Positions 44,810-45,670 are shown, numbered from the stretch's first letter. The stretch is 64,000 nucleotides of DNA from Escherichia phage PinkRuby (PP925839.1); one strand, 5' to 3'. The notes: generated by a model from the letters alone, not told the origin. Numbers and translations: made by a program.

Positions 44810-45670
44810 TTACACCGCCATCTTTCCTTTCAATACACCGTGGGACTGATAATCTTTGAGAACGAAATCTCGTGCTGTCATATATTCAGTTAACCAATAC
44901 ATTTGAGTTTCAGTATCGCATTGACTGAATCCATTAGGCCAATTAATACTGAGTTTGCATAGATCCATAGGAGTTCTATTTAATATCTCTTTGCATTGCT
45001 CAATATGGTTAGAATAAATGTGTGTATTACCACCCGAGAATACCAAATCGCCCGGAACTAGTTCACACATGTCAGCAACAATATGCAAAAGAGCAGCATA
45101 ACTCGCGATGTTAAATGGAAGACCGAGGAAAACATCTACCGAACGTTGATACCATTGGAGGTCAAGGTATCCGTTACGCACATTAAACTGATAGAACATA
45201 TGACAAGGAGGTAATGCCATCTGCTTGAGTTCAGCTGGATTCCATGCCGACACAATTTGACGCCTATCGTTGGGAAATGTTTTAATACGATTAACAACTT
45301 CTACAATTTGATCTACACCACCAAAATCACGCCACTGTTTTCCGTAAATTGGACCAAGTTCACCGCTATGATAACCTAAGTCTTTGGCCTGGTTTTCGTA
45401 GTTTTCATCCCAAATTGTTTTTCCTGCAATTAAAGATCCATGAGTACGTTGACGTAAATCATTTACGTTAGTACTTCCTGATAAGAACCACAATAACTCA
45501 GAAATACATGCATTCCAGGCGAGCTTCTTAGTCGTTACTGCAGGAAAACCTTTAGTTAAATCCCAGCGTAATTTAGTACCGAACAAAGCAATTGTTCCTG
45601 TGCCTGTTCGGTCATCAGTTTCATAGCCATTTTCAAAAATGTCTTTAATTAAATCTTGGTATTGTTTCAT
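44810..45670 (-). CDS. td: thymidylate synthase (uninterrupted, no group I intron)
   Basis: 286-aa continuous ORF with active-site LPPCHMFYQF. Confidence 0.95.
   Translation of the reverse strand: MKQYQDLIKDIFENGYETDDRTGTGTIALFGTKLRWDLTKGFPAVTTKKLAWNACISELLWFLSGSTNVNDLRQRTHGSLIAGKTIWDENYENQAKDLGYHSGELGPIYGKQWRDFGGVDQIVEVVNRIKTFPNDRRQIVSAWNPAELKQMALPPCHMFYQFNVRNGYLDLQWYQRSVDVFLGLPFNIASYAALLHIVADMCELVPGDLVFSGGNTHIYSNHIEQCKEILNRTPMDLCKLSINWPNGFSQCDTETQMYWLTEYMTARDFVLKDYQSHGVLKGKMAV

Follow-up and report, generated by a model that had tools for sequence, protein, structure and literature searches.

Empty homing-element sites in td, nrdB and four intergenic regions of a 64-kb Tequatrovirus segment

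Phage T4 is an outlier with 15 homing endonucleases, and most related genomes carry few insertions (PMC2988022). In Escherichia phage PinkRuby (PP925839.1) the td gene, which is interrupted by an intron in T4, is continuous. This raises the question of whether the other T4 elements are also absent from the surrounding DNA, and of how such empty sites are to be understood: as naive targets of homing, as resistant ones, or as sites from which elements have been lost. We addressed this question for a stretch of 64 kb (referred to below as the window), which runs from the end of gene 18 to arn with the gene order of T4. Within this interval T4 carries (i) segD, (ii) segE, (iii) the nrdB intron with a defective I-TevIII, (iv) nrdB.1 together with mobE, (v) the td intron with I-TevI, and (vi) segG; the other nine endonuclease sites of T4 fall outside it. 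The analysis indicates, with high confidence, that the window represents an ordinary Tequatrovirus with the empty-site allele at all six of these places.

Insertion sites of the T4 elements

In order to localize the positions at which the T4 elements are missing, the window was compared by blastn with T4 coordinates 88511-165112. The resulting breakpoints are given with the features concerned.

7793-7875, plus strand: gene 23/24 intergenic region, 83 bp, with a hairpin after 23 and TATAAATA before 24; T4 has segD here (breakpoint at window 7803/7864, T4 106521/107311)
12882-12931, plus strand: inh/uvsW intergenic region, 50 bp between the start codons; T4 has segE here (window 12918/12938, T4 112044/112680)
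12895-12902: late-promoter-like TATAAATA in the inh/uvsW gap
40320-40754, minus strand: denA, endonuclease II, with a GIY-YIG domain (PF01541), collinear with T4 denA; not a homing endonuclease
40758-41936, minus strand: nrdB, ribonucleotide reductase small subunit, a continuous 392 aa (PF00268), T2-type allele (intron breakpoint at window 41260/41263, T4 138457/139058)
41937-41987, minus strand: nrdA/nrdB intergenic region, 51 bp; T4 has nrdB.1 and mobE here, approx. 700 bp (window 41936/41992, T4 139719/140420)
41988-44252, minus strand: nrdA, ribonucleotide reductase large subunit, 754 aa, collinear with T4 nrdA
44810-45670, minus strand: td, thymidylate synthase, a single intron-less ORF of 286 aa (861 nt; intron breakpoint at window 45121/45122, T4 143546/144564)
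48346-49254, minus strand: gene 32, single-stranded DNA-binding protein, from the ORF list
49255-49353, minus strand: gene 59/32 intergenic region, 99 bp; T4 has segG here (window 49317/49353, T4 147918/148542)

Both intron-bearing genes of T4 are uninterrupted in the window, and in both the exons are joined. The td product covers the whole of PF00303 (1-266 of 266, E = 3e-95). The gene equals spliced T4 td in length (861 nt in both), and the two products align without a gap, with 226 identical residues and an identical peptide over the exon junction. In the case of nrdB, the 598-nt intron of T4 with I-TevIII is missing exactly at the exon junction (approx. 41260-41263), and over the adjoining 45 nt of exon 2 the window does not differ from T4. 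The TATAAATA motif is also present in the 59/32 gap, and the nrdA/nrdB gap contains a hairpin.

These results agree with a preliminary description of the locus, which had reported that td (286 aa) and nrdB (392 aa) are uninterrupted, that nrdA and nrdB lie about 50 bp apart without mobE (51 bp from the ORF coordinates), that inh runs into the uvsW promoter without segE (the 50-bp gap holding TATAAATA), and that 32 and 59 are separated by about 100 bp without segG (99 bp as measured). The absence of segD is an addition to its list of missing elements. It had also named denA as the sole GIY-YIG protein, and no other was found in the six-frame search or among the scanned ORFs; the denA match itself has E = 5.4e-6 and 27.1 bits against a cut-off of 22.6.

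The search for hidden elements used as queries SegD, SegE, SegG, I-TevI, MobE, I-TevIII and two T6 endonucleases, which were compared by phmmer (filters off) with 1188 six-frame ORFs of the window and by tblastn with the window DNA. No homologue of these eight T-even endonucleases was detected in any of the six frames, the best hit (E = 0.029) being an antisense ORF in gene 24. Pfam and PHROGs scans were applied to the ORFs of segments without a T4 counterpart, the T4 annotation standing in for orthologues of T4 genes, and revealed no nuclease domain in the ORFs of these segments. There was no endonuclease ORF in the 23/24, inh/uvsW, uvsW/uvsW.1, nrdA/nrdB and 59/32 gaps (83, 50, 13, 51 and 99 bp, respectively), nor inside td or nrdB. 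Neither blastn nor the exon comparison revealed inserted bases at the td or nrdB insertion sites. An intron or homing-endonuclease ORF in these intervals would contradict the preliminary description, and none was encountered in the window.

The group I intron family RF00028 gave no match in the window at E <= 1 (Rfam, E-value mode), a setting for which the control was partial: the T4 nrdB intron was found (E = 2.8e-6, below the gathering score) and the T4 td intron was missed, presumably on account of its large internal ORF for I-TevI. The corresponding null result at the Rfam gathering threshold carries no weight, since the same setting misses both T4 introns. As an intron of the td type is invisible to RF00028, the evidence for td is its uninterrupted, collinear ORF. 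More generally, negative Rfam results for ORF-bearing phage introns are unreliable.

Two further observations concern junctions in this part of the genome. The ORFs of uvsW (503 aa) and uvsW.1 are separate and 13 bp apart (14443-14457), and their junction is the exact insertion point of a gene of T6 encoding a 230-aa endonuclease with an HNH motif. Between gene 32 and frd.3, a 73-bp stretch (48235-48307) is 97% identical to the motA/motA.1 intergenic region of T4 (163635-163707), which lies far away; the two may share a promoter-type element.

Mosaic structure, relatives and frequency of the elements

No single public record matched the whole window, the nearest record changing from segment to segment:

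1-25000: SholemSchwarzbard (98.1%) and ime09 (97.7%), each aligned in one piece
25001-50000: teqskov (NC_054934; 97.0%), aligned in one piece
50001-64000: Shigella phage Sf24 (96.9%), tail-fibre tip included

Judged by these alignments, the window is a mosaic, a typical member of Tequatrovirus and a copy of no deposited genome. Since teqskov, ime09, SholemSchwarzbard and others align unbroken over whole 25-kb portions, they share the empty arrangement. In particular, teqskov shares with the window both the empty sites and the td allele (99.8%), and no endonuclease gene is present in its annotated 43 kb. It differs from the window in gp38, which is of the T4 type (183 aa, annotated as tail fiber assembly) and not of the T2 type, and in the central patch of nrdB. 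This patch (41280-41400, nt 535-660 of the gene), located just upstream of the empty intron site, is T2-type in the window and is unrelated as DNA to the teqskov and T4 versions, with which it shares its flanks; it differs from T4 by four codons in length.

The segments of the window without a T4 counterpart comprise a second alt paralogue, an extra Ig-like domain of Hoc, a fibre tip of the T2 type and five small ORFs:

10773-12191, minus strand: Hoc, 472 aa (376 aa in T4)
23349-25406 and 25410-27506, minus strand: two Alt-like ADP-ribosyltransferase genes, both of full length (685 and 698 aa)
35227-35769, minus strand: small ORF of 180 aa, absent from T4, conserved phage family
37390-37710, minus strand: small ORF of 106 aa, absent from T4, conserved phage family
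45715-46074, minus strand: ORF of 119 aa (phrog_1928) between frd and td, no Pfam match, not an endonuclease
46667-46912, minus strand: small ORF of 81 aa, absent from T4, conserved phage family
46924-47256, minus strand: small ORF of 110 aa, absent from T4, DUF7247
57350-61213, plus strand: gp37, distal long tail fibre, 1287 aa, with PF13884 (Peptidase_S74) at residues 1189-1246
61244-62029, plus strand: gp38, T2-type adhesin, 261 aa (PF05268, E = 4.5e-72; PF21721, E = 8e-18)

The Hoc gene contains an internal repeat of approx. 300 bp (blastn), which is consistent with one extra Ig/PKD-like domain. Two alt genes are also carried by T2 and T6, in contrast to T4, which has one full gene and the remnants alt.-1 and alt.-2. 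The 119-aa ORF corresponds to approx. 400 bp inserted relative to T4 (blastn), at the place where frd and td of T4 overlap, and it also occurs in T2 (likewise between td and frd), T6 and teqskov. Most of the five small ORFs are found in T2, T6 or teqskov. The idea that they are decayed endonucleases was rejected, because they belong to conserved phage families, no nuclease domain was detected in them, and they have counterparts in T2, T6 or teqskov.

The T2-type gp37 and gp38 noted in the preliminary description were recognized by the PF05268 adhesin domain and by PF13884 in a diverged gp37. PF13884 is the intramolecular chaperone domain, situated near the C-terminus. The C-terminal part of gp37 differs from that of T4, and downstream of 57499 the nucleotide similarity to T4 is weak, patchy or absent (blastn). 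The distinction between gp38 as adhesin and as chaperone is stated in the T4 record, T2 being the reference for the adhesin type; gp38 of T4 is of the chaperone type, and T4 also lacks the five small ORFs of the window.

T2 (AP018813) was compared gene by gene over the region from gene 20 to gene 34. It has the same six sites empty, with the same gaps (23/24, 83 bp; inh/uvsW, 50 bp; nrdA/nrdB, 51 bp; 59/32, 99 bp), and its td (861 nt) and nrdB (1179 nt) are continuous, as in the window. T2 is not the nearest relative overall, and it lacks the 110-aa DUF7247 ORF and the 180-aa ORF. T6 (NC_054907) resembles the window in its extra small ORFs, two alt genes, empty and identical 59/32 gap and intron-less nrdB. 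It nevertheless carries in the same interval segD, segE, the endonuclease gene between uvsW and uvsW.1, an endonuclease gene between nrdA and nrdB (a MobE-like gene of 213 aa), and the td intron with I-TevI.

The preliminary description had concluded from these features that the phage belongs to a T2/T6-like lineage and is not T4 itself. In this form the proposal is not supported. It holds for the fibre tip and, as far as T2 is concerned, for the empty sites, but it is only half right, since five homing elements of T6 lie in this interval. In overall identity, T6 (95.6% for the aligned window parts against the stretch compared) is about as close as T4 (NC_000866; 95.0% over the aligned parts, approx. 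54 kb). The resemblance to T2 and T6 is no lineage assignment, and the lack of endonucleases is a common state, not a lineage marker.

That this state is common is apparent from the phage collection. The td intron with I-TevI was present in 197 of the 638 records matching the td query, and the nrdB intron and mobE occurred together in 23 of 733 records. A query with segE alone matched 159 records, and segG and segD were found in 142 and 55 records, respectively, as against approx. 640-800 records matched by the flanking genes. Each T4 element is therefore a minority trait among T4-like records, which makes the pattern of the window ordinary and not improbable. As a rough estimate, in which the sites are treated as independent and their empty-site fractions multiplied over a redundant database, about a third of the relatives are empty at all six sites.

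The absence at six sites is confirmed here but is already well described for the relatives of T4 and is nothing new. The window is one more example of T-even phages other than T4, which were already known to be without most of the introns and homing endonucleases of T4 (PMC2988022, PMC2790892, PMC2330249). For annotation, it follows that td and nrdB are each to be entered as one gene without interruption, and that endonuclease genes are not to be expected in these gaps.

Similarity to T2 targets and the origin of the empty state

The preliminary description had regarded the window as a naive recipient for homing, a reading that we consider plausible by analogy with T2. Three sets of experiments described previously bear on it: (i) homing of MobE and the nrdB intron was demonstrated with nrdB of T2, which is nicked at nt 122-126 (PMC2790892), (ii) SegG was shown to act on gene 32 of T2, which is the target of SegG-driven marker exclusion (PMC2330249), and (iii) the action of SegE was shown with RB30 and RB52, in their hoc.1-uvsW region, and not with T2 (PMC2330249). 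Genomes without most of these elements, foremost among them T2, are known to serve as recipients in mixed infections, and this accounts for localized marker exclusion (PMC2988022, PMC2790892, PMC2330249).

The target regions of SegE, SegG and MobE are 97-100% identical between the window and T2, a value that for SegE and SegG expresses overall identity to T2. The inh/uvsW intergenic region is identical to that of T2, and a 301-nt stretch extending into uvsW is 98.3% identical. The 59/32 gap is identical to that of T2 and, taken together with gene 32, shows 97.4% identity; the upstream 108 nt are identical to both T2 and T6. The nrdA/nrdB intergenic sequence is nearly identical to that of T2, and nrdB with its upstream region shows 96.8% identity. 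The nick positions of MobE could be placed on the window directly:

41811-41815, minus strand: site corresponding to nrdB nt 122-126, where MobE-dependent nicks were mapped in T2 (PMC2790892)

The window and T2 differ here at nt 126 only (AAA versus AAG, both Lys), and T4 differs at many positions around this site. Such near-identity to T2 makes susceptibility to SegE, SegG and MobE a reasonable, sequence-based expectation. The case for td as a target of I-TevI is weaker and is considered separately below.

In the absence of introns, td and nrdB are expressed without splicing. The neighbouring genes lie 50-100 bp from one another; late-promoter-like TATAAATA motifs occur between genes 23 and 24, inh and uvsW, and 59 and 32, and hairpins in the 23/24 and nrdA/nrdB gaps. 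By analogy with T2, the T4 endonucleases would be expected, in a mixed infection with T4, to cut or nick the window alleles of uvsW, nrdB, td and gene 32 or DNA close by. Repair from the T4 copy would then bring in the endonuclease genes and the introns, along with T4 sequence from their flanks. It is from the likeness of the empty sites to those of T2 that we infer cleavage and homing.

The empty state could, however, be secondary, the elements having once been present and then lost precisely, for instance when a co-infecting relative with empty sites recombined with the phage. Allelic replacement appears to be frequent in this region, as the genome is a mosaic whose nearest relative changes by segment and a T2-type nrdB allele stands beside a teqskov-type td. 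On the other hand, no remnant of an endonuclease or intron is detectable in the window, homing favours gain over loss (PMC2988022), and a single sequence looks the same whether a site was restored by replacement or was never invaded. We regard precise loss as unlikely. That the absence is an artefact, due to collapsed or mis-joined contigs in the assembly or to misplacement of genes, is extremely improbable: nothing was found in its favour, all six junctions recur with few or no base differences in independent genomes (T2, T6 in the 59/32 gap, and teqskov), and the ORFs show neither disruption nor truncation. A phage of an ordinary kind, with empty-site alleles, accounts for the window very well.

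The td allele and the I-TevI homing site

The td gene of the window belongs to a divergent allele, 99.8% identical to that of teqskov, as opposed to 78.6% for T2 and 76% for T4. Divergence peaks at nt 660-840 of the gene (approx. window 44831-45011), and the last approx. 200 nt are nearly unalignable as DNA. The 3′ part of T2 td is T4-like, hence the low value for T2. At an identity of at least 95%, the window-type allele was found in approx. 34 of 483 matching records, which include, apart from teqskov, Kha5h, ADUt and about 30 others. Among the matches listed, it appears in two records, both uninterrupted, and was not found adjoining an intron.

Two elements of the I-TevI target could be located in this allele:

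45102-45151, minus strand: equivalent of the I-TevI homing site, -30 to +20, with the empty insertion site between 45122 and 45121
45144-45148, minus strand: cleavage motif CAACG, 23-27 nt upstream of the insertion site

For I-TevI, the CNNNG motif lies 23-27 nt upstream of the insertion site (PMC2988022). The CAACG motif of the window keeps the spacing seen in T4 and T2. Over the 50 positions of the homing site, the window shows 10 mismatches to intron-less T4 td (T2 shows 7), all of them synonymous, and the peptide YQRSVDVFLGLPFNIAS encoded across the site is unchanged. In intron-bearing phages (T4, T6 and others) the matches to td stop at, or a few bases before, position 312 of the query, which is the insertion site.

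These features could be taken to mean that the empty sites are resistant rather than naive, synonymous changes in the targets, above all in td, blocking endonucleases of the T4 type; the phage would then be immune to invasion, not merely never invaded. In favour of this, the 10 synonymous mismatches leave the peptide YQRSVDVFLGLPFNIAS intact, alignments with intron-bearing phages break off at the insertion site without window-type exon 2 beyond it, and the substitution at nt 126 of nrdB falls within the MobE nick positions; if the window-type allele never occurs together with an intron, this too could point to resistance. Several observations argue against it. The mismatch density in the homing site (20%) does not exceed the divergence of the gene as a whole (approx. 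24%), and so gives no sign of directed escape; the CAACG motif and its spacing are preserved, and T2 itself shows seven mismatches. In work by Bryk et al. (1993) and Edgell et al. (2004), I-TevI is reported to tolerate many substitutions. Since exon 2 comprises only 312 nt and would normally be converted to the donor type on homing, co-conversion would produce the same pattern, and the lack of window-type exon 2 beside an intron is not an indication of resistance. Moreover, the regions of segE and segG are identical, or nearly so, to those of T2, a proven recipient for SegG. For these reasons we consider resistance of the empty sites improbable.

A narrower proposal, that the td gene of the window is a variant resistant to I-TevI which is held in the population by escaping intron invasion, and not a naive target, would fit the saturated synonymous changes across the homing site and the very different 3′ end, but we attach little probability to it. 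How readily this minority allele is cut would bear on the extent to which natural variation restricts I-TevI.

The td gene is highly polymorphic among T4-like phages. In the case of Escherichia phage L14 (OQ992558.1, 115726-116661), the td match falls into two pieces and spans approx. 936 bp for a query of 616 nt, and two thymidylate synthase CDSs are annotated. The td gene of this phage could hold a short insertion without an endonuclease ORF.
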